This document shows positions 2,365 through 52,996 of a stretch of 64,000 bases of DNA, piece after piece. The number at the start of each line of letters is the position of its first letter. Positions within the stretch are counted from its first letter, which is position 1. The translations under genes and the position numbers were made by a program. The notes below the pieces were generated by a model that was given only the letters and a program-made list of their open reading frames with translations, ran no database searches and was not told where the DNA came from. This DNA comes from Escherichia coli (GTDB lineage: Bacteria; Pseudomonadota; Gammaproteobacteria; Enterobacterales; Enterobacteriaceae), in assembly GCF_001677475.2 (NCBI RefSeq), contig NZ_CP015229.1; one strand, given 5' to 3'.

Positions 2365-3042
2365 ATGAAGTGGGACTGGATTTTCTTTGATGCCGATGAA
2401 ACGCTGTTTACCTTTGACTCATTCACCGGCCTGCAGCGGATGTTTCTTGACTACAGCGTCACCTTTACCGCTGAAGATTTTCAGGACTATCAGGCCGTTA
2501 ACAAGCCACTGTGGGTGGATTATCAAAACGGCGCGATCACTTCATTACAGCTTCAGCACGGGCGGTTTGAGAGCTGGGCCGAACGGCTGAACGTCGAGCC
2601 GGGTAAACTCAACGAAGCCTTTATTAATGCGATGGCGGAAATCTGTACGCCGCTGCCGGGCGCGGTTTCTCTGCTTAACGCCATTCGTGGCAACGCCAAA
2701 ATCGGCATCATCACCAACGGCTTTAGTGCCTTGCAACAGGTGCGTCTGGAACGCACGGGCCTGCGTGATTACTTCGATTTGCTGGTGATTTCCGAAGAAG
2801 TTGGCGTTGCCAAACCGAATAAGAAAATTTTCGATTATGCGCTGGAACAGGCGGGCAATCCTGACCGTTCACGCGTGCTGATGGTTGGCGACACTGCCGA
2901 GTCCGATATTCTCGGTGGCATCAACGCCGGGCTTGCGACCTGCTGGCTGAATGCGCACAATCGCGAGCAACCAGAAGGCATCGCGCCCACCTGGACCGTT
3001 TCTTCGTTGCACGAACTGGAGCAGCTCCTGTGTAAACACTGA
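2365..3042 (+). CDS. yjjG: HAD-family pyrimidine 5'-nucleotidase
   Basis: 225-aa ORF starting [15 protein letters not shown] (HAD DxD motif); K-12 synteny. Confidence 0.88.
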
Positions 3043-3132
3043 TTGCCTCCCCCCCGTTGATGGGTAAAATAGCCGCAATTTTTCGTTTTCAACAAGCGCG
3101 GCGCGATGCCGCTTACTCAAGAAGAAAGAATT

Positions 3133-3207
3133 ATGACGTTGTCTCCTTATTTGCAAGAGGTGGCGAAGCGCCGCACTTTTGCCATTATTTCTCACCCCAA
3201 TAATTAA
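3133..3207 (+). pseudogene. prfC: Displaced 5' end of prfC (first ~21 codons) left at attL, running into phage DNA to a stop
   Basis: ATG at 3133 encodes [22 protein letters not shown] then diverges (NN*) after the att core; the full prfC is at 54307. Confidence 0.8.
3184..3197. other. attL core (ATTATTTCTCACCC), left prophage junction
   Basis: Identical 14-bp sequence recurs at 54355..54368 inside the intact prfC 5' end; flanking ~20 bp match with one mismatch. Confidence 0.75.
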
Positions 3208-3361
3208 GCCTAAATTAAAGCTCTTTTACTTTTTCAAAGTCCTTTCAGTTAATTGATGTTTGGTTTTATAAGTCATTTAAATACAGTTAGTTATGTGGCT
3301 TCTTTAATTGAAAATTCTTTCATGTAACTTTAAATCGATCAGGTTGCTTTCATCAAAAATC

Positions 3362-3427: not shown

Positions 3428-4663
3428 ATGGCGCTGTCTGATGCGTGGTTGCGTTCAGTCGTTGGAAAGGAACGTGATAAGGTTTTGGTTAAATCCGATC
3501 GTGATGGTCTGTCTGTCAGAGTATCACCGAAAGGTCGCGTAGTGTTCCAATATCGTTATCAATGGGCAGGGAAAGGTGAGCGCCTTGATATCGGAACTTA
3601 CCCGGCAACTGGATTAAAAGAGGCCAGAGAAGAAGTTATCCGTCTCCGTGGTGAACTCGAGTCAAACCGCAATCCACGATTAGTCAAGCAGGCTGAAAAA
3701 CGAAAAGCTACTGAAGCCATGACGGTAGAGTCTGTGATCCGTGCCTGGTATGAAGCATATTGTGTAAAAAATAAAAAAGGTTCTGAACAGATACTCCGCT
3801 CGTTTGAGCTGCACCTGTTCTCTAAAATCGGGAATATCCCTCACGATGCAGCTACATTGCATGATTGGTTAGAAGTCCTGGAGCCTCTTAGCACCAAGAC
3901 TCCAGCAATAGTAGACCGATTGCTAATTAACGCAAAGCAGGCTCATGTCTGGGCGTATAAGAGAAAGCTCATTGAAACTCGCCCACTGTCGGATATCACG
4001 GGTAAAGATATGGATATCCGTAAAGGTCAGAAAAAACGGTTTCTGACACATGATGAAATTAACATCCTTTATGCTGCGATCGATGGTTCTCGAATGGTTC
4101 CTAAATACCGAGCCTTCATTAAACTATTGCTGCATTTTGGTTGCCGTAGTTCAGAGCTAATTACTGCTAGGGTGGATGATTTTGATTTCATAAATAAGGT
4201 ATGGACTGTACCACCAGAACGACATAAGACTGGGGACATAACAGGCGAACCGCTAAAGCGGCCCATTATTGAACCGGTTGAAGAGCTTATAAAATACGTT
4301 ATCTCTATGAACAACGGTTCCGATATGCTTTTTACTAAGGAAGGAAGCAGGGAGCCAGTTGGTCGGACATCATTGCAGTCGCTGCCTTACAATTTAATGC
4401 AGTTCGCATGGCGACGTTTGGGGTATCAATTTCCTCATTGGTCTCTTCATGATTTGAGACGAACAGCACGAACAAACTTTTCTGATCTTACTGCTCCTCA
4501 TATTGCTGAAATAATGCTTGGTCATAAACTGCCAGGTGTATGGCAAGTTTATGATAAGAGCGATTATCTAGAAGAACAGCGTAAAGCTTACTGGGCATGG
4601 TGGGAGAGGGTTGAATCGATCGTTACTTGTACTGACTTAATCTCCAACGGACAGTTTGCGTAG
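3428..4663 (+). CDS. int: Tyrosine integrase, P4-type (N-terminal arm-binding domain plus catalytic domain)
   Basis: 411-aa ORF directly inside attL; C-terminal HDLRRTARTN and catalytic Y region typical of tyrosine recombinases; SD AAGGTGAG before ATG. Confidence 0.9.
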   Translation: MALSDAWLRSVVGKERDKVLVKSDRDGLSVRVSPKGRVVFQYRYQWAGKGERLDIGTYPATGLKEAREEVIRLRGELESNRNPRLVKQAEKRKATEAMTVESVIRAWYEAYCVKNKKGSEQILRSFELHLFSKIGNIPHDAATLHDWLEVLEPLSTKTPAIVDRLLINAKQAHVWAYKRKLIETRPLSDITGKDMDIRKGQKKRFLTHDEINILYAAIDGSRMVPKYRAFIKLLLHFGCRSSELITARVDDFDFINKVWTVPPERHKTGDITGEPLKRPIIEPVEELIKYVISMNNGSDMLFTKEGSREPVGRTSLQSLPYNLMQFAWRRLGYQFPHWSLHDLRRTARTNFSDLTAPHIAEIMLGHKLPGVWQVYDKSDYLEEQRKAYWAWWERVESIVTCTDLISNGQFA

Positions 4664-4821
4664 CCAGAGCGTAATCATATCTGCCAGTCCGCTGCGGATA
4701 CCTTGTGTACTGGGTTTTTAGCCAGACTACGTTAACCGGTAGCTTCAGTATTTGGGGTGTCGGCAGGAGTTTGATGGTTTATTGGGTTACTGTGGGACTA
4801 AGGATGTAGGGATGCCAATCG

Positions 4822-5955
4822 ATGAATTATGAAAAATATCATAGCACAAACAGAAGCAAGGGTTTGCGAACCTTCTGCTACTTAATTTATTATGTGCAGG
4901 TGATTTTTAATGTGATGAAGTGTTTTATGACTCGCGGAAACTTTGATTTTATAAACTCTAACGTGGTTTTCTCAGAAGCCGATAAGTCATTGTGGATTGA
5001 TCTCATTAACACCGATTGTATTTGGTATGATATGATAATTAATCCTCCTGATGATATAAGAACAAATAAGATAATAAAGAACTATCTCAGAATTATGGAA
5101 AAATATACGAGGGAAAGCTGTGAAAAGAGATTTATTTATTTCTTAGGTTCAAGAAAAAAAGTGAGGTTTTCAACCAAGAAACAGCCTAGGTATAACCCAT
5201 TCACAAAAAATATAGTATTCACTCTGTTGATTGGCAAAGAAGAGCGAAAGCTTCGGATAAAATATTCCTTTTGCACGTTTACGCAGAATGGGGTAGTGAA
5301 GGTAACTCCAAATGTTAGAGTAACTGAGAAGTTTCTCTACATTGAATATGAAAATGGCAATTTATGTGTGATGTCAGTTCATGATTTCGTAAACGGACAT
5401 TATATTGATTTAGGAATTCATACAGAAGTGCATTACGTAGGATATACACGTCATCCGCATCGGCGCCCTGTTGATTTTATTCACCGTGGCTTATCAAAGA
5501 TGCTGTATAGCGTTTCAAATGACGATAATGATTTTTTTGTTTGTTTTAGTATATTTAATCCAAGGATTATATCTCTGAATAATAAATGTAATGTGGTCTT
5601 TAATATTTCAAATTCTCTACTGGATGAAATTGATGTTGATAATGAGGGGAGAATTATTGAAAACTGCTTAATACGTTACTTTGATCCTAAGCTTCAAGAT
5701 GATGACAAGGAAAGTAAAAGGTCAGATTTAAATAAAATGTTTATGGACCTGGTGGAAAATAAAAAAATTAAAAAAATATACGTTAATTTTCAATATGAAA
5801 GGAATAATGAGTATTTCTGCTTTTACTCTAAAGTTGTTCCGCCGAAATTTCATCATTTCTTTGTGTTGGATTTTTCTGATGGCAAGATAAATATTGATAG
5901 AGACCAGGATATGATGACTCAGATGGCATTGTGCATGGGGTATTATAATTATTAA
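4822..5955 (+). CDS. Hypothetical protein, strongly AT-rich cargo gene between int and xis (function unknown)
   Basis: Single uninterrupted 377-codon ORF with N/K/I/F-rich composition, much lower GC than the flanks; alternative in-frame ATG at ~4915 has a better SD. No motif I can assign. Confidence 0.55.
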   Translation: MNYEKYHSTNRSKGLRTFCYLIYYVQVIFNVMKCFMTRGNFDFINSNVVFSEADKSLWIDLINTDCIWYDMIINPPDDIRTNKIIKNYLRIMEKYTRESCEKRFIYFLGSRKKVRFSTKKQPRYNPFTKNIVFTLLIGKEERKLRIKYSFCTFTQNGVVKVTPNVRVTEKFLYIEYENGNLCVMSVHDFVNGHYIDLGIHTEVHYVGYTRHPHRRPVDFIHRGLSKMLYSVSNDDNDFFVCFSIFNPRIISLNNKCNVVFNISNSLLDEIDVDNEGRIIENCLIRYFDPKLQDDDKESKRSDLNKMFMDLVENKKIKKIYVNFQYERNNEYFCFYSKVVPPKFHHFFVLDFSDGKINIDRDQDMMTQMALCMGYYNY

Positions 5956-6164
5956 TATTTCGCCTGATGCCAACTCAAAATCTTTTTTGTCGCATCCATT
6001 GTGGATTAATATTCAGAGGTAAGGGGTATCTGCGGAATTTATATTTTGCAGGATGAGCATACAATACATGATATAACATCTGTTTTTGGCACAGAGCATA
6101 TAGTCAGATTATGTTTAGTTCTGTGCCATAGATGGATATTATCTCACCTCTTGGCTAACTCTCA

Positions 6165-6359
6165 TTACTCAATAACTCCAGCAAATCTGTATATTTTGCG
6201 TGATGCCCATTTATTTGGGCAGGATTTAATATCAGGATCTGGAAAATCTGGCCTGTATTTCTGGCCTGTCCTCCTGTTTACGCTGTTCCAGCGAAGCACC
6301 GTCGATATTGAAACGCCACAGAATTCGGCGACTTGTTTTGTTGTCATTAAGTTGCTCAT
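6165..6359 (-). CDS. xis: Excisionase / AlpA-family small DNA-binding protein
   Basis: 64-aa ORF MSNLMTTKQVAEFCGVSISTVLRW..., winged-helix pattern of the AlpA/Xis family; SD GGAGGGG upstream; last gene of the leftward operon. Confidence 0.6.
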   Translation of the reverse strand: MSNLMTTKQVAEFCGVSISTVLRWNSVNRRTGQKYRPDFPDPDIKSCPNKWASRKIYRFAGVIE

Positions 6360-6393
6360 TGCTACCCCTCCAGCGGTTGTTCAGTTGAAAGAC

Positions 6394-6930
6394 TCATGCG
6401 CATGTGCGTAACTCCGATAACTCGTTAAAGCGTTCCATAAACATCCCGTAGGCATGGCCTGGCGACAGTGGAATAACTTTGAACATCTCTGTGGCAGAGA
6501 TGCCTTCCAGTACTGGCCAGAAAGAGCCATCATCAAGCCCGAGATCGCGGCGTTCGGTTGCCAGCATGATGAGATCGGCATATTTCACGGGTGTACTCAT
6601 AACCGGGGGTAACCCGTATTTCTCACGGATTACTGTGTCTATTTTTTCTTCCATCCGTTTATAGTCAGGAAGAAAGCGTTTCAGTGGTGCGGGGATGTCC
6701 TGGCAATACGCTTCTGTTGCATCATGCATTAACGCTTCAAAAGCAAATTCCTGCGGTACCAGCTGGCTGCAAAGCACCGCATGTTGGGCGACGCTGTAGA
6801 AGTGTGAAAGATGACCGGCAAAGCGACAGATATTTGAAAGGGAAACCGCGATATCGTTAATATCGATGTCGTCTTTATTTATCCTGTCATAATAAAAATG
6901 CTTCCCGGAAAAAGTTTTAATAAATGACAT
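6394..6930 (-). CDS. HD-domain phosphohydrolase, YfdR-like (5'-deoxynucleotidase family)
   Basis: HD motif (ALMHDATEAY); N-terminus MSFIKTFSGKHFYYD with SD GGAGAA chosen at 6930 rather than the track start 6957. Confidence 0.75.
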   Translation of the reverse strand: MSFIKTFSGKHFYYDRINKDDIDINDIAVSLSNICRFAGHLSHFYSVAQHAVLCSQLVPQEFAFEALMHDATEAYCQDIPAPLKRFLPDYKRMEEKIDTVIREKYGLPPVMSTPVKYADLIMLATERRDLGLDDGSFWPVLEGISATEMFKVIPLSPGHAYGMFMERFNELSELRTCA

Positions 6931-12813: not shown

Positions 12814-13302
12814 ATGAGTCTTTTGAATGAAGTTCAGAAATTCATTGAAGCCCATCCGGGGTGTACTTCCGGAGACATTGCAGATGCTTTTGCAGGTTAC
12901 TCACGGCAGCGCGTTCTGCAGTCAGCAAGCAAGTTACGTCAGAGTGGGCGTGTGGCTCACCGTTGTGAAGGAGATACACGCAGACATTTCCCGCGCCTGA
13001 CTGAGAGAGCGCAGGAGCCGGAACCACAACCAGTTCGTGAAACCAGACCTGTGCGCAATTTCTATGTCGGCACTAACGATCCCCGGGTAATTTTGTGCCT
13101 GACCCGCCAGGCTGAAGAACTGGAGTCCAGGGGCTTATACCGTCGTGCTGCAACCGTGTGGATGGCGGCATTCCGTGAAAGCCACTCCCAGTCAGAACGA
13201 AACAATTTTCTGGCGCGCCGTGAGCGGTGCTTACGGAAAAGCAGCAAGCGCGCTGTATCGGGTGATGAGTGGTATCTGTCAGGGAATTACGTGGGGGCTT
13301 AA
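12814..13302 (+). CDS. PerC-family (Pch-like) transcriptional activator candidate
   Basis: 162-aa ORF with C-terminal LESRGLYRRAATVWMAAF resembling the PerC signature; recalled, not searched. Confidence 0.4.
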   Translation: MSLLNEVQKFIEAHPGCTSGDIADAFAGYSRQRVLQSASKLRQSGRVAHRCEGDTRRHFPRLTERAQEPEPQPVRETRPVRNFYVGTNDPRVILCLTRQAEELESRGLYRRAATVWMAAFRESHSQSERNNFLARRERCLRKSSKRAVSGDEWYLSGNYVGA

Positions 13303-13955
13303 TGAGTAATAAATATTGCCAGGCGCTGGTGGAACTGCGGAACAAACCAGCCCATGAACTGAAGGAAGTGGGCGATCAGTGGCGCACGCCGGACAACATT
13401 TTCTGGGGAATTAACACCCTGTTTGGCCCGTTTGTTCTGGATCTGTTCACCGACGGTGATAACGCCAAATGTGCCGCGTATTACACGGCGGAAGACAATG
13501 CGCTGGCGCATGACTGGTCAGAACGTCTTGCGGAGCTTAAAGGTGCTGCCTTTGGTAATCCCCCATACAGCCGCGCCAGTCAGCATGAGGGGCAATACAT
13601 CACCGGCATGCGTTACATCATGAAGCATGCCAGTGCCATGCGTGATAAGGGCGGACGCTATGTTTTCCTGATCAAAGCTGCCACCAGCGAAGTGTGGTGG
13701 CCGGAAGATGCAGATCATATTGCTTTTATTCGCGGGCGTATTGGTTTTGAAGTGCCTGCCTGGTTTATCCCGAAAGACGAGAAGCAGGTGCCGACAGGCG
13801 CTTTCTTCGCTGGTGCTATTGCTGTTTTCGATAAGACCTGGAAGGGACCGGCAATCAGCTACATCGGGCGCGATGAACTTGAGGCATGTGGTGAGGCGTT
13901 TCTGGCGCAGGTTCGCCAGCAGGCAGAACGGCTGGTCAGGGAGATAGTGGCATGA
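13302..13955 (+). CDS. Phage N6-adenine DNA methyltransferase (Dam-like, orphan)
   Basis: FGNPPYS (NPPY) catalytic motif; ATG at 13302 with SD; no adjacent restriction gene. Confidence 0.75.
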   Translation: MSNKYCQALVELRNKPAHELKEVGDQWRTPDNIFWGINTLFGPFVLDLFTDGDNAKCAAYYTAEDNALAHDWSERLAELKGAAFGNPPYSRASQHEGQYITGMRYIMKHASAMRDKGGRYVFLIKAATSEVWWPEDADHIAFIRGRIGFEVPAWFIPKDEKQVPTGAFFAGAIAVFDKTWKGPAISYIGRDELEACGEAFLAQVRQQAERLVREIVA

Positions 13956-14341
13956 AGCTGATCCTGCCTTTTCCGCCCAGCGTGAACACGTACTGGCGAC
14001 ACCCCAACAAAGGGGCGTTTGCAGGTAAGAGCCTGATAAGCGCGGCGGGGCGCAAATTCCAGAGCGCGGCGTGTGCAGCAATAGTTGAGCAGTTACGTCG
14101 TCTGCCGAAACCAACGTCGGCACCTGCTTCAGTGGAGATCGTGTTGTTTCCTCCGGATAACCGGATCCGCGATCTGGACAACTATAACAAGGCGCTGTTT
14201 GACGCCCTGACCCACGCGGGTGTGTGGGAAGACGACAGTCAGGTGAAAAGAATGCTGGTGGAGTGGGGACCGGTTATCCCGGAAGGGAAGGTCGAGATCA
14301 CTATCAGTAAGTACGAGAAAACGGCGGGTGCAGCCGCCTGA
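13952..14341 (+). CDS. rusA: RusA Holliday-junction resolvase
   Basis: 129-aa ORF MKLILPFPPSVNTYW... with conserved Asp residues typical of RusA. Confidence 0.85.
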   Translation: MKLILPFPPSVNTYWRHPNKGAFAGKSLISAAGRKFQSAACAAIVEQLRRLPKPTSAPASVEIVLFPPDNRIRDLDNYNKALFDALTHAGVWEDDSQVKRMLVEWGPVIPEGKVEITISKYEKTAGAAA

Positions 14342-47506: not shown

Positions 47507-50446
47507 ATGGCAGTAAAGATTTCAGGTGTACTGAAAGACGGCACAGGAAAACCGGTACAGAACTGCACAATCCAGCTGAAAGCAAAACGTAACAGCACCA
47601 CGGTGGTGGTGAACACGCTGGCCTCAGAAAATCCGGATGAAGCCGGGCGTTATAGCATGGACGTTGAGTACGGTCAGTACAGCGTTATTCTGTTGGTGGA
47701 AGGATGCCCGCCGTCACATGCCGGGACCATCACCGTGTATGAAGATTCCCGACCCGGTACGCTGAATGATTTTCTCGGTGCCATGACGGAGGATGATGCC
47801 CGTCCGGAGGCTCTGCGCCGTTTTGAACTGATGGTGGAAGAGGTGGCGCGTAACGCGTCCGCGGTGGCACAGAACACGGCAGCCGCGAAGAAGTCAGCCG
47901 GCGATGCCGGCACATCTGCCCGTGAGGCGGCAACCCATGCGACTGATGCTGCAGATTCAGCACGTGCAGCCAGCACGTCAGCCGGACAGGCCGCGACGTC
48001 AGCTCAGGAGGCTTTTTCCTGCGCAGGAACGGCATCAGCAAAAGCCTCTGAGGCATCAAAAAGTGCTGCCGCTGCAGAGTCCTCAAAAAGCGCGGCGGCC
48101 ACCAGTGCCGGTGCCGCGAAAACGTCTGAAACGAATGCTGCAGCGTCACAACAATCAGCAGCCACTTCTGCATCCACCGCGACCACGAAAGCGTCAGAAG
48201 CTGCCACCTCAGCCCGGGATGCGTCGGCTTCAAAAGAGGCGGCAAAATCATCAGAAACGAGCGCAGCCTCGAGCGCAAGTAGTTCCGCTTCCTCGGCAAC
48301 AGCGGCAGCAAATTCTGCGAAGGCGGCAAAAACGTCCGAGACGAACGCCAGGTCTTCTGAAACGGCAGCGGAACAGAGCGCCTCAGCTGCGGCAGGTTCA
48401 GAAACTACCGCTGCATCATCAGCCCGTGAGGCGTCAGTCAAAGCGGAGGAGGCTGCAGCCAGTGCCACTGCCGCCGGAAAATCGGCAGAAAGCGCCGCAT
48501 CATCCGCTTCAACAGCCACAACGAAGGCTGGCGAAGCCACTGAACAGGCCAGCGCAGCAGCGAGGTCAGCTTCCGCAGCGAAGACATCCGAAACGAACGC
48601 GAAAGCGTCGGAAACCAGCGCAGAATCCTCAAAAACGGCTGCCGCATCGTCCGCCAGTTCGGCGGCGTCATCGGCCTCATCGGCGTCTGCTTCAAAAGAT
48701 GAGGCGACCAGACAAGCGTCAGCAGCGAAGGGCAGCGCCACGACGGCATCCACGAAGGCAACAGAGGCTGCTGGCAGTGCGACGGCGGCAGCACAGAGCA
48801 AAAGTACGGCGGAATCCGCGGCAACGCGCGCCGAGACAGCGGCAAAACGGGCAGAGGATATTGCATCCGCCGTGGCGCTTGAGGATGCGAGCACGACGAA
48901 AAAGGGGATAGTACAGCTCAGCAGTGCGACCAACAGCACTTCCGAGTCACAGGCGGCAACGCCAAAGGCAGTAAAAGCAGCCAATGACAATGCTGAGAAA
49001 CGTCTGCAGAAAGATCAGAACGGTGCGGATATCCCTGGCAAAGACACCTTTACGAAAAATATTGGTGCCTGCCGTGCCTTCGGTGGGTCAGTAAGCACAA
49101 CAACAGGAAACTGGACGACTGCACAGTTTATCGAGTGGCTGGATTCTCAGGGAGCATTTAACCATCCATACTGGATGTGCAAGGGTTCCTGGTCTTATGG
49201 CAATAATAAAATCATTACTGATACTGGCTGCGGTAATATTCATCTCGCCGGAGCTGTCATTGAAGTAATGGGGATAAAGTCAGCGATGACGATCCGCATT
49301 ACCACTCCGACTACATCCAGCGGTGGCGGAACAACCAACGCCCAGTTTACCTATATTAATCACGGAACAGATTATTCACCTGGCTGGCGAAGGGACTATA
49401 ACTCCAGAAATAAGCCAACGGCATCAGAGATCGGGGCGCTACCGTCAGGTGGAACAGCAGTATCATCAGTTAATCTGGCTTCAAAAGGTCGGGTAGCCGC
49501 GCTGACAGACAATACGCAGGGGGCAGCAGGTCTTGAGTTATACGAGGTGTATAACAACGGATATCCAACAGCGTATGGAAATATCATTCACCTGAAAGGG
49601 ATGACAGCCGTTGGCGAAGGTGAGTTACTCATCGGCTGGAGTGGTACAAGCGGTGCTCATGCTCCGGCATTTATTCGTTCACGACGGGATACGACCGACG
49701 CAAACTGGTCGCCGTGGGCGCAGCTTTACACCTCGGCTCATCCTCCTGCAGAGTTTTATCCAGTCGGTGCACCAATCCCGTGGCCATCAGATACCGTTCC
49801 GTCTGGCTATGCCCTGATGCAGGGGCAGACTTTTGACAAATCTGCATACCCGAAACTTGCAGCGGCTTATCCGTCAGGCGTTATTCCTGATATGCGTGGC
49901 TGGACGATTAAGGGCAAGCCCGCCAGTGGTCGTGCCGTATTGTCTCAGGAACAGGACGGCATTAAATCGCACACCCACAGCGCCAGCGCATCCAGTACGG
50001 ATTTGGGGACGAAAACCACATCGTCGTTTGATTACGGCACTAAATCCACGAATAACACCGGTGCGCATACCCATAGTTTAAGTGGCAGCACGAATGCGGC
50101 TGGTAATCACAGCCATAGAGATGGCCGTCGATTTAACCCCAGTGTTTTTAAAGATACTTATCAATATGGTTATACAAGCTCAGGTCAAAATACCTGGGGG
50201 GTACAAGGCTCAGTAGGTATGTCTACGGGGTGGTTAGCTAATACCAGTACAGATGGTAATCATAGCCACTCACTGTCCGGTACAGCAGTATCTGCAGGTG
50301 CACACGCGCATACTGTCGGTATTGGTGCTCATACGCACTCCGTTGCGATAGGGTCACATGGACACACCATCACCGTTAACGCTGCTGGTAACGCGGAAAA
50401 CACCGTCAAAAACATCGCATTTAACTATATTGTGAGGCTTGCATGA
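47507..50446 (+). CDS. stf: Side tail fibre protein Stf (Ala/Ser-rich repeats; C-terminal HxH repeats)
   Basis: 979-aa ORF; long low-complexity central region; C-terminus [18 protein letters not shown]...[15 protein letters not shown] typical of lambda-type Stf. Confidence 0.85.
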
Positions 50447-51345
50447 TTACGCTCATTCTTTCTGCACCAGTAACAGAAATGGCTGAAGCATTTAAGCGGG
50501 TATTCGCAAATGCAGATAATGTGAATATTGTCGGAAAGCCATTTGAAACAATCAGGGAATTTGACTGCATGGTAAGTGCGGCAAACAGTTTCGGCCTGAT
50601 GGATGGCGGTGTTGATGCCGCCATTACCGCATTCTTCGGTACTCAGTTACAGTCCCGCGTTCAGAATCATATTCTTCGTGAATATCTCGGCGAGCAGCCT
50701 GTAGGTTCTGCATTTGTTATTGAAACGGGGCATAATCATCATCCCTGGCTGGTACATGCGCCAACAATGCGTGTTCCGCTGACAATTGACGGAACAGACG
50801 CTGTATATAACGCAACCTGGGCCGCTCTGCTTGCCATCTTTCAGCACAATAAACACGCAACGACAGACAGGAAAATAAAAACGGTGGTATTCCCTGCAAT
50901 GGGAGCCGGATGTGGTCAGGTGCCGTTTGAAAGTGTTGCCCGGCAGATGAAGCAGGCATGGGATAACTTTAATAAAAAAACAGAATCAATTAACTGGGAA
51001 TACGCACAATCCCGCCAGTCGGCAGTATTTGGCACATATGCATACTGTCCGGGTAATTCTGTTTGCCGTTATGCGGATACTAAATATATTGGATGCGGCG
51101 ATTATCGGACGTATTGCTCACGTTCCGGGCAGGTCTGTATTAACCCTGAACATCAGGCTGATGATGTACTGATACAACATCAGGCTAATAACCGGTTTCG
51201 CCCTGGTTCGCATATACACCGGATTAATCCAGAAAATCCCGTAGGTAATGTCATCTCTGGCGCACATAGCCACGGAAGTAGCATCGTTATTGGTGCTCAC
51301 ACCCATACGCTCAATAAACAATATTCTGTCTCTGATATTAAGTAG
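50443..51345 (+). CDS. Macro-domain (ADP-ribose binding/hydrolase-like) protein with tail-fibre-like His-repeat C-terminus, inserted between stf and tfa
   Basis: ATGA overlap with stf stop; macro motifs [18 protein letters not shown] and [14 protein letters not shown]; C-terminal [18 protein letters not shown] echoes the Stf C-terminus; stop 8 nt before tfa ATG. Confidence 0.6.
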
Positions 51346-51353
51346 AGGTGAAC

Positions 51354-51929
51354 ATGGATTTCAGAATGAGTGAACAACCACGGACCATAACAATTTATAA
51401 TCTGCTGGCCGGAACTAATGAATTTATTGGTGAAGGTGATGCATATATTCCGCCTCATACAGGTCTGCCAGCAAACAGTACCGATATTGCACCGCCAGAT
51501 ATTCCGGCTGGCTTTGTGGCTGTTTTCAACAGTGATGAGGCATCGTGGCATCTCGTTGAAGACCATCGGGGTAAAACCGTCTATGACGTGGCTTCCGGCG
51601 ACGCGTTATTTATTTCTGAACTTGGCCCATTACCGGAAAATGTCACTTGGTTATCCCCGGAAGGGGAGTTTCAGAAGTGGAACGGCACAGCCTGGGTGAA
51701 GGATACGGAAGCAGAAAAACTGTTCCGGATCCGGGAGGCGGAAGAAACAAAAAACAACCTGATGCAGGTAGCCAGTGAGCATATTGCGCCGCTTCAGGAT
51801 GCTGCAGATCTGGAAATTGCAACGGAGGAAGAAATCTCGTTGCTGGAAGCATGGAAAAAGTATCGGGTATTGCTGAACCGTGTTGATACGTCAACTGCAC
51901 AGGATATTGAATGGCCAGCACTGCCGTAG
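51354..51929 (+). CDS. tfa: Tail fibre assembly protein Tfa
   Basis: [41 protein letters not shown]... matches recalled lambda Tfa; SD GAGGTG upstream. Confidence 0.9.
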
Positions 51930-52026
51930 GGTAAAACATATAAATTCTATAATTAGATGTATCTTTCCATTTACGGCAAGGAAGGGGGCTTGGAAGACGT
52001 AAAGCATCTCACACCGAGATTATTTT

Positions 52027-52617
52027 TTATATGTCAGGTGTCTGAAGTTTTGCTTTGGCTCTTAAAATGGTTTGCCGCGAGGTTTTGAATTCCCGGGCAA
52101 TGGCACTTATACTTACACCTGACTTAATTCGTTCGAATACCACCTGTTTCTGTTCTTCATTTAACACAGGTGGTCGACCAAAACGTTTCCCTGCGCCCCG
52201 GGCTCTTACTATCCCGGAATGAGTGCGTTCAAGTAAAAGGTCTCGTTCAAATTCAGCGACTGCTGAAATTACTTGCATCATCATTTTTCCTGTTGGACTG
52301 GTCAGGTCAATGCCCCCCAATGCTAAGCAATGCACTCTGATACCTGTTTCGGTCAGTTGTTCCACTGTTTTCCTGATATCCATTGCATTACAACCAAGGC
52401 GATCCAGTTTTGTCACAATCAATTGATCACCACATTTCAGGCGAGCAAGCAACCGGTTAAAACCAGGACGCTCACTGGTTGCTGCTGAGCCGCTAATGTG
52501 TTCTTCGATTATTTGCTGAGGTTTGATTTTAAAACCTGCACTTTCGATTTCCCGGCGTTGATTTTCGGGGGTCTGATCCAGCGTTGATATCCGACAGTAA
52601 GCAAAAATTCGAGACAT
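52027..52617 (-). CDS. pin: Serine recombinase / DNA invertase (Pin/Hin/Gin family)
   Basis: 196-aa [18 protein letters not shown]... with catalytic Ser motif and C-terminal HTH; adjacent to tfa as in e14/Rac/Qin. Confidence 0.88.
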
Positions 52618-52996
52618 AGTGAGACTCTATACGAAATTGGTGTACATATCATAATGCATATCCAAAAATTATTTCGCTTATTATTGTACATATTTGTATG
52701 TATACGTTCGAAAATAAACGAATTCGGATGCAGTCCCGTAATTTTGGTGTAACCAAAAATCGATTTTTTGAAAAATGGCTTTAACTCGGTTTGTTTTTCG
52801 AACTCCGGGCGGACTCGAGGAAGACGAATAATAGTGTTGTATGTTATTTTAACCAGATTTTAAGTTGTTTGGTCGTGGAAAAGTGGAGCAAAATGTTGTT
52901 AAAGTGGAAAAATGGTAAAAAAAGTAGGTTGTTGCGGAATAACGTAGTTGTTGATATTTTTTTAATGCATTGAAAAATTATTTTTCAGGGGGGGTA

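Follow-up and report, generated by a model that had tools for sequence, protein, structure and literature searches.

A cargo gene between int and xis of a prfC-integrated lambdoid prophage of Escherichia coli encodes a candidate single-gene phage-defence nuclease with a divergent GIY-YIG-like core

Nucleases of the GIY-YIG type (PF01541), which cleave phosphodiester bonds with the help of divalent metal ions, are represented by the N-domain of UvrC, I-TevI, T4 EndoII, R.Eco29kI and the YhbQ/UPF0213 proteins. CMoRE/PD-T4-3 (PDB 9u75) is a single-gene GIY-YIG type IV restriction endonuclease of 248 aa, with an N-terminal nuclease, a C-terminal domain that binds 5-hydroxymethylcytosine (5hmC), a GIYxY-YIG motif and a 15-residue acidic lid (PMC12923530). 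Its cleavage is specific to DNA that contains 5hmC or glucosyl-5hmC. SNIPE is a membrane-bound protein that combines DUF4041 with a GIY-YIG nuclease and cuts phage DNA during injection (PMC13190303; bioRxiv 2025.11.03.685801). We describe here a gene in a 64,000-nucleotide stretch of Escherichia coli DNA (contig NZ_CP015229.1; the whole stretch is called the window below), which lies between the integrase gene int and the excisionase gene xis of a lambdoid prophage. By analogy, its product (the cargo protein) appears functionally most like CMoRE/PD-T4-3 and SNIPE while being a member of neither family. The gene is a good candidate for a new single-gene phage-defence nuclease, and we put the probability that it encodes one, carried as prophage cargo and both nuclease and defensive in function, at roughly 0.55. 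Single-protein nucleases carried as the cargo of prophage hotspots are a familiar kind of system. New and so far uncharacterised here are the family itself, the way its domains are arranged and the altered active site; PADLOC v2, NCBIfam and Pfam do not contain the family.

The gene and the parts of its product are listed here, with residues numbered from the start codon at 4927 and domain boundaries taken from the secondary structure of an AlphaFold2 model built from a 40-sequence alignment (predicted local distance difference test score 90, predicted template-modelling score 0.88).

4927..5955, plus strand: most likely coding sequence of the 342-aa cargo protein (WP_225092812.1, PHROG 7779), from the PHROG match, the homologues, the dN/dS ratio and the AlphaFold2 model.
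4822..4926, plus strand: in-frame extension of the open reading frame (ORF) by 35 codons, probably an untranslated leader or promoter region; missing from all homologues and not in RefSeq.
4927..5121, plus strand: N-terminal region, aa 1-65, a beta-hairpin and a long helix in the model, with conserved R3, G4, Y15, K20 and W22.
5122..5361, plus strand: basic beta-rich domain of the model, aa 66-145, with the invariant motif KRFIYF..SRKKVRF.
5362..5691, plus strand: putative divergent GIY-YIG-like nuclease core, aa 146-255, alpha/beta in the model.
5380..5388, plus strand: H152-D153-F154, candidate counterpart of the 'GIY' strand; SIHDF in most family members, IYDF, IYDY or VYDL in several.
5434..5490, plus strand: putative 'YIG...R...H' half-site YVGYTRHPHRRPVDFIHRG with Y170, G172, T174, P177, R180, H186 and G188, from the family alignments.
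5644..5646, plus strand: E240, candidate metal-binding Glu, at the start of helix 237-252 in the model and invariant in the 40- and 39-sequence alignments.
5692..5952, plus strand: C-terminal region, aa 256-342, a long helix and a small beta sheet in the model, with conserved Q257, H310 and F312.

CMoRE differs from the cargo protein in length and layout: the cargo protein is 342 aa long, has its core in the middle with a flanking region at either side, carries His in place of the GIY Tyr, and has an 18-residue gap between the two halves of its motif (S-I-H-D-F...Y-V-G). Like SNIPE, it is predicted to be a single-protein defence with a GIY-YIG nuclease effector. SNIPE, however, begins with a transmembrane helix at its N-terminus, continues with DUF4041 and ends in the nuclease, whereas the cargo protein has no transmembrane segment (maximum Kyte-Doolittle 19-residue score 0.87) and neither DUF4041 nor another Pfam match. 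Compared with canonical GIY-YIG nucleases, it stays below the threshold of the Pfam hidden Markov model (HMM), has the GIY Tyr replaced by His, a longer hairpin and a short helix between the motif strands and a beta-hairpin inserted before the Glu helix, and its flanking domains are new. A PADLOC comparison, one of the checks proposed with the original prediction for this locus, gave no match at E ≤ 1, the PD-T4-3 model included. No Pfam or NCBIfam model matches either (the one Pfam line returned, NNH2 with E 0.1, was regarded as noise). Of named families, the protein belongs to PHROG 7779 alone, whose function is unknown.

The cargo protein is read as a soluble 41-kDa protein of three parts, the first formed by the N-terminal region and the basic domain, the second by the central core and the third by the C-terminal region. 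Residues 66-145 are all-beta and strongly basic (pI 10.2) and form a candidate nucleic-acid-binding or target-sensing domain; the terminal regions (aa 1-65 and aa 256-342) have no database match. The Foldseek search that had been suggested for a predicted structure leads, in AFDB50 and outside the family, to proteins of about 320 aa with the UniProt name "GIY-YIG domain-containing" or "GIY-YIG nuclease family" protein, which match over their full length (about 350 aligned columns, E 1e-16 to 1e-10). Four of these, A0A972GIS2, A0AA96I5F5, A0A416SUP1 and A0A9D5EX11, have the whole three-part architecture in common with the cargo protein (template-modelling score 0.55-0.63) at an identity of only 11-16%, and none is characterised. 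The three-part layout is therefore not confined to the family: a wider group has it, and there the central domain can be recognised. Against the PDB, Foldseek returned only meaningless matches such as coronavirus spike and galectins; no solved structure therefore has the overall architecture.

The original prediction had been unable to assign any domain to this protein. At the level of the fold a domain is assignable: residues 146-255 most likely form a very divergent GIY-YIG-type nuclease core, for which the sequence support is marginal and the fold support consistent. In the model this region is a compact alpha/beta unit with a three-stranded sheet, the candidate GIY counterpart forming strand 1 and the putative YIG counterpart strand 2, followed by helices, as in the GIY-YIG fold. 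The half-site is formed by a His/Arg cluster, GYTRHPHRRPVDFIHRG (nt 5440..5490), that had been proposed as a metal or phosphate-binding site. The only residues invariant among 39 diverse members (25-73% identity over the domain) are Y170, G172, T174, P177, R180, H186 and E240. Within the cluster G172, T174, P177, R180, H186 and G188 are conserved and H176, H178 and R179 vary. Given this conserved YIG-R-H block, the cluster is thus the YIG...R...H half of a putative active site. The proposal stands in so far as the cluster holds these residues; R180 and H186 are its only conserved His or Arg, and the metal ligand is probably E240 instead. The register Y-x-G-x-T-(5)-R equals that of E. coli YhbQ (Y17, G19, T21, R27, then H31). 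The sequence of features that marks the superfamily, Tyr-x-Gly, the catalytic Arg about 10 residues on (R180 is Y170+10) and then His, Lys or Tyr, is found here in full.

The strand that precedes the YIG strand reads S-[IV]-[HY]-D-[FY], with His152 in the cargo protein and Tyr in several relatives. H152 lies 18 residues ahead of Y170, with a short helix between, compared with a canonical GIY-YIG spacing of 10-11. Residue order and the secondary structure of the model suggest that H152 may stand in for the GIY tyrosine. Y71, invariant in 'KRFIYF', might fill that role instead, with a 95-residue insertion before YIG; H152 is preferred because strand 146-150 directly precedes the YIG strand. By analogy with known GIY-YIG enzymes, E240 is likely to be the metal ligand. 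The nearly invariant E245 is on the same helix (237-252), and Q257, invariant in the 40-sequence alignment, follows 17 residues past E240, roughly where the GIY-YIG Asn is expected.

Profile searches point in the same direction at low scores. When relatives were compared with Pfam, GIY-YIG was the sole recurring family; one of 61 reached 1.8e-4. Segments of four of nine relatives matched Pfam GIY-YIG at independent E-values of 0.7-2.3, and in each case model positions 10-30 fell on the YVG..R block. The best match of the domain profile among PDB sequences is 1ywl, a UPF0213 GIY-YIG protein (E 0.26, 14.2 bits), again on the Y-x-G-x-T-(5)-R block. For calibration, I-TevI, a genuine GIY-YIG nuclease, is recovered by a YhbQ profile with no more than 11.9 bits (E 1.6), so that marginal scores are what one GIY-YIG subfamily normally gives against another. 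Comparison with the YhbQ alignment by hhalign gave 0.8%, with a reference that is shallow (Neff 1.7), a homologue search on E. coli YhbQ having returned near-identical sequences only. The YhbQ HMM matched none of the family members. A search of PDB sequences with the full-length family profile returned only vestitone reductase (E 1.1), which was taken as chance.

The ORF of the original prediction (4822..5955, plus strand, 377 aa) is present as described, with a start at 4822 that is 105 nt too far upstream. The true start is most likely 4927, giving 342 aa, because the homologues, RefSeq, the span of the PHROG 7779 match and a stop codon in the Serratia extension agree. Every homologue in the family alignment opens with M-x-R-G at the Met of 4927, the RefSeq call (WP_225092812.1) has 342 aa, and the PHROG match (1e-246) is confined to residues 36-377 of the long ORF. 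In the closest homologue, from Serratia, a stop interrupts the 35-codon extension, though the DNA there is conserved. In Cronobacter an AAGGAG lies 6 nt ahead of the corresponding ATG. The codons in 4822..4926 are probably untranslated. The gene does have a GC content far below that of everything around it: at 0.32 it is the lowest-GC stretch of 1029 nt in the entire 64 kb (window 0.50, int 0.444, xis 0.426, remaining prophage 0.511, host DNA 0.543), where 0.6% of all segments of this length are at or below 0.33. The N/K/I/F/Y bias that had been noted is likewise found (N 9.1%, I 8.8%, K 8.2%, F 7.9%, Y 5.8%), and the protein is poor in Ala (0.6%).

The gene had also been called an orphan, which is not the case, as the family comprises about 216 clusters (at 50% identity) across many Proteobacteria. 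A word-indexed search of 5.8 billion proteins retrieved 46 relatives, and an exhaustive profile search of 1.84 billion representatives retrieved 216 clusters at E ≤ 0.001, 123 of them at E ≤ 1e-30; a second word-indexed search with the wider family alignment yielded almost no additional relatives. Nearly all cluster members are 320-345 aa long and match end to end. Their hosts are Enterobacterales, Burkholderiales (Robbsia), Arcobacter, Psychrobium, Pseudomonadales, Acinetobacter and Vibrionaceae, with further members in metagenomes. Twenty residues are invariant across 40 sequences of 31-82% identity, and the ratio of non-synonymous to synonymous substitution rates (dN/dS) is 0.20 relative to the Serratia copy; the gene is real and under purifying selection. 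All but one of the 14 IMG/VR copies are intact, the remaining one being frameshifted, and one E. coli copy is interrupted by an IS5-family element. A sub-branch of the family (P0105, P0112, P0116, P0118, P0123, P0140, P0144, P0149, P0165, P0169 and P0177) is without Y-x-G...R...H, reading for example 'VYAVAATRTPLACWL', and retains the S-[IV]-[HY]-D-F-L strand and the overall length. To judge by their sequences, its members are probably catalytically dead paralogues.

The position of the gene bears directly on its proposed role. It is flanked by the following two genes, in the arrangement that had been described (int, the ORF and a convergently oriented xis).

3428..4663, plus strand: tyrosine integrase int (PHROG 1 integrase, 4.4e-74; annotated as integrase in PV340573.1 and RefSeq).
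6165..6359, minus strand: excisionase xis (PHROG 1553 excisionase, 1e-34).

This integrase type occurs at prfC in 697 of 5426 complete E. coli genomes (about 13%). Only about 60 of the 697 carry the cargo gene, and the int genes of these are at least 99% identical. Similarity to the remaining sister prophages ends at the int stop codon and, as expected of the cargo slot that had been proposed, the position just downstream of int carries alternative genes in sister prfC prophages. Other fillers of the slot were sampled in five strains.

E. coli YPE10 (L041, from 5407): Dsr1 (PADLOC E=0, 2714 bits).
JNEC-KY204 (L040, 5509..7296): 595-aa OLD-family ATPase (AriA 7.5e-57, also Old and GajA).
2022H047 (L015, 5227..7167): 646-aa TPR protein with weak PDC-M02A matches.
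EC416 (L039, 5519..7428): three-gene set that includes a STAS-like protein.
UTI89 (L013, 5419..6414): 331-aa hypothetical protein.

The comparison of int-xis contents across related prophages, also proposed with the original prediction, thus gives six different contents, among them the cargo gene, Dsr1 and the OLD/AriA-like ATPase. The slot is a defence hotspot. Two of the five other fillers are known defence genes and three are unknown; the TPR protein, the STAS-like set and the 331-aa protein are further defence candidates without a firm PADLOC assignment. Rousset et al. are said to have described, in 2022, defence hotspots of temperate phages and satellites such as those of P2 and P4. The prfC slot is like the P2 and P4 hotspots in being a fixed prophage position with alternative, compositionally foreign defence genes, and unlike them in belonging to a lambdoid, prfC-integrated phage group and in lying between int and xis. 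A search of one literature library found no paper dealing with the cargo protein, phage PhiR63_1 (which carries the same region, see below) or the prfC int-xis slot.

The gene travels with conserved non-coding DNA, in which three elements are distinguished.

4690..6105, no strand assigned: mobile AT-rich cassette (about 1.4 kb) that consists of the gene and its conserved non-coding flanks, from the alignment with a Serratia plasmid.
5956..6078, plus strand: conserved 3' non-coding flank, alignable among the E. coli, Serratia and Cronobacter copies.
4864..4893, plus strand: candidate sigma-70-like promoter, TTGCGA-18-TATTAT, within the spurious extension and 34 nt ahead of the start at 4927.

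The conjugative plasmid NZ_CP068149 of Serratia liquefaciens shows 80-84% nucleotide identity across the cassette and 82% amino acid identity in the coding sequence. The alignment takes in about 240 nt ahead of the start codon and about 150 nt after the stop codon, and the bounds of the cassette are therefore placed at about 4690..6105. The Serratia copy adjoins a remnant of a Tn3 transposase. A chromosomal copy in Cronobacter has about 75 nt upstream and about 125 nt downstream in common. In all 13 homologue loci compared, the GC content of the gene is 7-26 points under that of its flanks. Among 50,697 phage records (one match) and 2.9 million IMG/VR contigs, the E. coli prophage lineage of the window is the only one with the family. 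The gene moves between replicons, and its origin seems to lie in bacterial islands, from which a phage captured it, and not in phages.

The flanks 4690..4926 and 5956..6078 are about as conserved as the coding sequence and more so than synonymous sites (pS 0.33); they match nothing in Rfam and show no significant RNA folding (z = -0.04 for 5956..6078), and may be a terminator, an operator or a recombination site. The -35 block GGTTTGCGAACC of the promoter is identical in the Serratia copy, and the -10-like TATTAT/TACTAT is kept in Cronobacter. A promoter consensus scan scored 9/12 matches, not above chance for the region, so that 4864..4893 is treated as a candidate promoter.

At the homologue loci the gene is always solitary and has no conserved partner. 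Known defence systems, toxin-antitoxin genes or mobile-element cargo regions are found in 8-9 of 15 contexts (14 homologue loci and the window), and five homologue loci are uninformative. The neighbours are as follows.

One locus: Olokun OloA/OloB, directly adjacent.
Proteus smpB island: Lamassu LmuA/LmuB, directly adjacent.
Klebsiella: PDC-S11, type I restriction-modification, a 1005-aa reverse transcriptase and a ScoMcrA-like HNH protein.
Robbsia: BrxR, BilA/B/D and two reverse transcriptases.
One locus: Wadjet and a giant methyltransferase-PLD-helicase protein.
Salmonella integrative and conjugative element: a complete Dcm/DUF4928/Vsr set.
One locus: CcdAB and a PIN toxin.
Acinetobacter: Tn7-like cargo.

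This genomic context suggests an anti-phage function. A type II restriction-modification system with a GIY-YIG restriction endonuclease (Eco29kI-like) was considered and rejected, there being no adjacent methyltransferase in the window or at 12 of 13 homologue loci; the methyltransferase of the Salmonella locus belongs to the Dcm/DUF4928/Vsr set. The cargo protein is not taken to be a type II nuclease because a cognate methyltransferase is lacking. In Klebsiella variicola the homologue is followed, 600 bp downstream, by a module of the type VI secretion effector type (L010 9635..10890) made up of an orphan Tlde1-domain protein, an 88-aa ORF and an Hcp gene; the island around them also contains the type I restriction-modification system, PDC-S11 and the HNH McrA-like gene. 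A reading of the family as type VI secretion effectors was dropped because the Hcp/Tlde1 association is not repeated at other loci.

From fold, motif and context we infer a nuclease activity, a defence role, a target, a promoter and roles for the domains, as set out here. One lineage of prfC-integrated lambdoid prophages would have gained the cassette by horizontal transfer, in the variable slot just downstream of int. The lysogen would express the nuclease from the gene's own promoter, and the protein would act alone against phages or other mobile elements. Its basic beta domain and terminal regions may bind and select the substrate by a feature of the invader that is missing from host and prophage DNA, and the central GIY-YIG-like core would then cleave the selected nucleic acid. 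Y170, G172, R180, H186 and E240 would form the catalytic centre, with His152 at the place of the GIY tyrosine. Lacking a methyltransferase or immunity gene, such a system would have to spare self DNA in one of two ways. Cleavage may need a feature that only the invader has, such as a modified base (as for CMoRE) or a structure or state of entry (as for SNIPE), or the enzyme may be inactive until triggered, as in abortive infection.

A bolder form of the defence-nuclease reading would make the cargo protein the first known representative of a family of single-gene immune nucleases not recognised before, with a rebuilt GIY-YIG site (His for tyrosine, split by an insertion) set between two new domains that read a non-self feature other than the targets of CMoRE, SNIPE or classical restriction, and with dead sister paralogues repurposed as sensors or decoys. 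We propose this tentatively and give it less than an even chance. A narrower form takes the first of the two ways literally: the flanking domains would read a modified base (hydroxymethylcytosine (hmC), glucosyl-hmC or another hypermodification) and the core would cut only modified phage DNA. It would account for a protein that needs no methyltransferase or immunity partner; no known modified-base reader fold emerged in the fold searches, and we consider this form plausible while unlikely.

The second way corresponds to an abortive-infection nuclease, silent until a phage protein or process triggers it and then indiscriminate on host and phage nucleic acid. The context evidence for it equals that for the defence nuclease in general, many single-gene prophage defences work in this manner, and the additional N- and C-terminal domains could be the sensor, although no known sensor domain was found in the protein. 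The E. coli copy disrupted by IS5 and the frameshifted IMG/VR copy would fit a gene that is costly to its host; two inactivated copies among about 75 are, however, ordinary for any cargo gene. The sequence holds nothing that separates abortive infection from direct restriction, and we regard the former as rather unlikely.

Outside the proposed reading of a defence nuclease, the likeness to GIY-YIG may mislead or the site may be inactive, the protein then being a non-catalytic binder or regulator or another enzyme with a role, for example, in superinfection exclusion or host modulation. Several observations weigh against a nuclease here. A Pfam scan of the cargo protein gives no PF01541 match, every sequence-based test stays below its threshold, and the first tyrosine is replaced. 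Moreover, the whole sub-branch without the Y-G..R..H residues persists, which means that some members of the family function without catalysis. The fold and the catalytic motif support membership of the GIY-YIG superfamily, with the HMM threshold missed and an unorthodox first tyrosine. In the branch of the cargo protein, however, the invariants over 39 sequences of 25-73% identity are precisely the catalytic set, and several independent methods converge on the GIY-YIG fold family. A non-nuclease is accordingly judged improbable.

A selfish element, either a free-standing homing endonuclease or a nuclease that spreads its own 1.4-kb cassette, would also combine a GIY-YIG core with mobility. 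Tev and Seg homing enzymes have an N-terminal core and a C-terminal NUMOD/HTH (helix-turn-helix) DNA-binding domain and reside in phage genomes or introns; the cargo protein has a central core and no NUMOD, IENR1 or HTH Pfam domain, and assignment to the Tev/Seg type was rejected. The gene is essentially missing from phage genomes (the single record and single IMG/VR lineage given above), its insertion sites are heterogeneous and no one conserved target gene is hit, which makes a homing function very improbable. A nuclease of the phage life cycle, degrading host DNA like T4 EndoII or serving recombination or repair in lytic growth, is scarcely credible, as only about 9% of prophages with this integrase type carry the gene, most homologues are outside phages, and the gene lies outside the early and late operons with a candidate promoter of its own and a foreign composition.

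Should the gene prove protective, the defence catalogue would gain a single-protein nuclease system that is compact (1 kb) and arranges its domains in a new way, and the int-xis slot of prfC-integrated lambdoid prophages would stand out as a defence hotspot that merits mining. The unusual active site, with His for Tyr and a long insertion, would widen the definition of a GIY-YIG enzyme, and an enzyme dependent on modification or structure could become a reagent, as has been proposed for CMoRE. If it has no effect on phages, it is one more uncharacterised moron.

The window opens with the E. coli chromosomal genes rsmC, holD, rimI and yjjG, followed by the lambdoid prophage in the 5' end of prfC. 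The integration at prfC that had been proposed is borne out by the displaced 5' end of the gene at 3133..3198 and by a rebuilt prfC from about 54304, where the intact gene starts with an N-terminus supplied by the phage.

3133..3201, plus strand: remnant of the original prfC 5' end at the left junction (attL side), a 22-aa translation followed by a stop; partial coding sequence in RefSeq.

From int as far as the replication genes, the prophage is identical to Escherichia phage PhiR63_1 of ECOR13 (PV340573.1) and to prophages in about 60 complete E. coli genomes. The PV340573.1 record annotates a plus-strand hypothetical protein of 121 aa (record 2851..3216; window 6046..6411) that overlaps xis on the minus strand and has no PHROG match, whereas the opposing xis matches PHROG 1553 at 1e-34; the RefSeq annotation of strain ExPEC XM has no gene at this position. 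The excisionase gene appears to have been overlooked or put on the wrong strand in public annotations. A Dam-like N6-adenine DNA methyltransferase is encoded in the replication module (window ~13300..14000; PV340573.1 10119..10772), 8 kb from the cargo gene; it is judged an orphan phage methyltransferase, and pairing the two as a restriction-modification system was rejected on account of this distance and because the methyltransferase is missing from the other loci. The right prophage junction is near 54.3 kb, and the right end of the prophage (window ~48000..52700) is not colinear with PhiR63_1. A Pin-type serine recombinase is found at 52027..52617, where colinearity with PhiR63_1 predicts about 48.8 kb, and the prophage of the window therefore has about 3 kb extra in the tail-fibre/invertase region.

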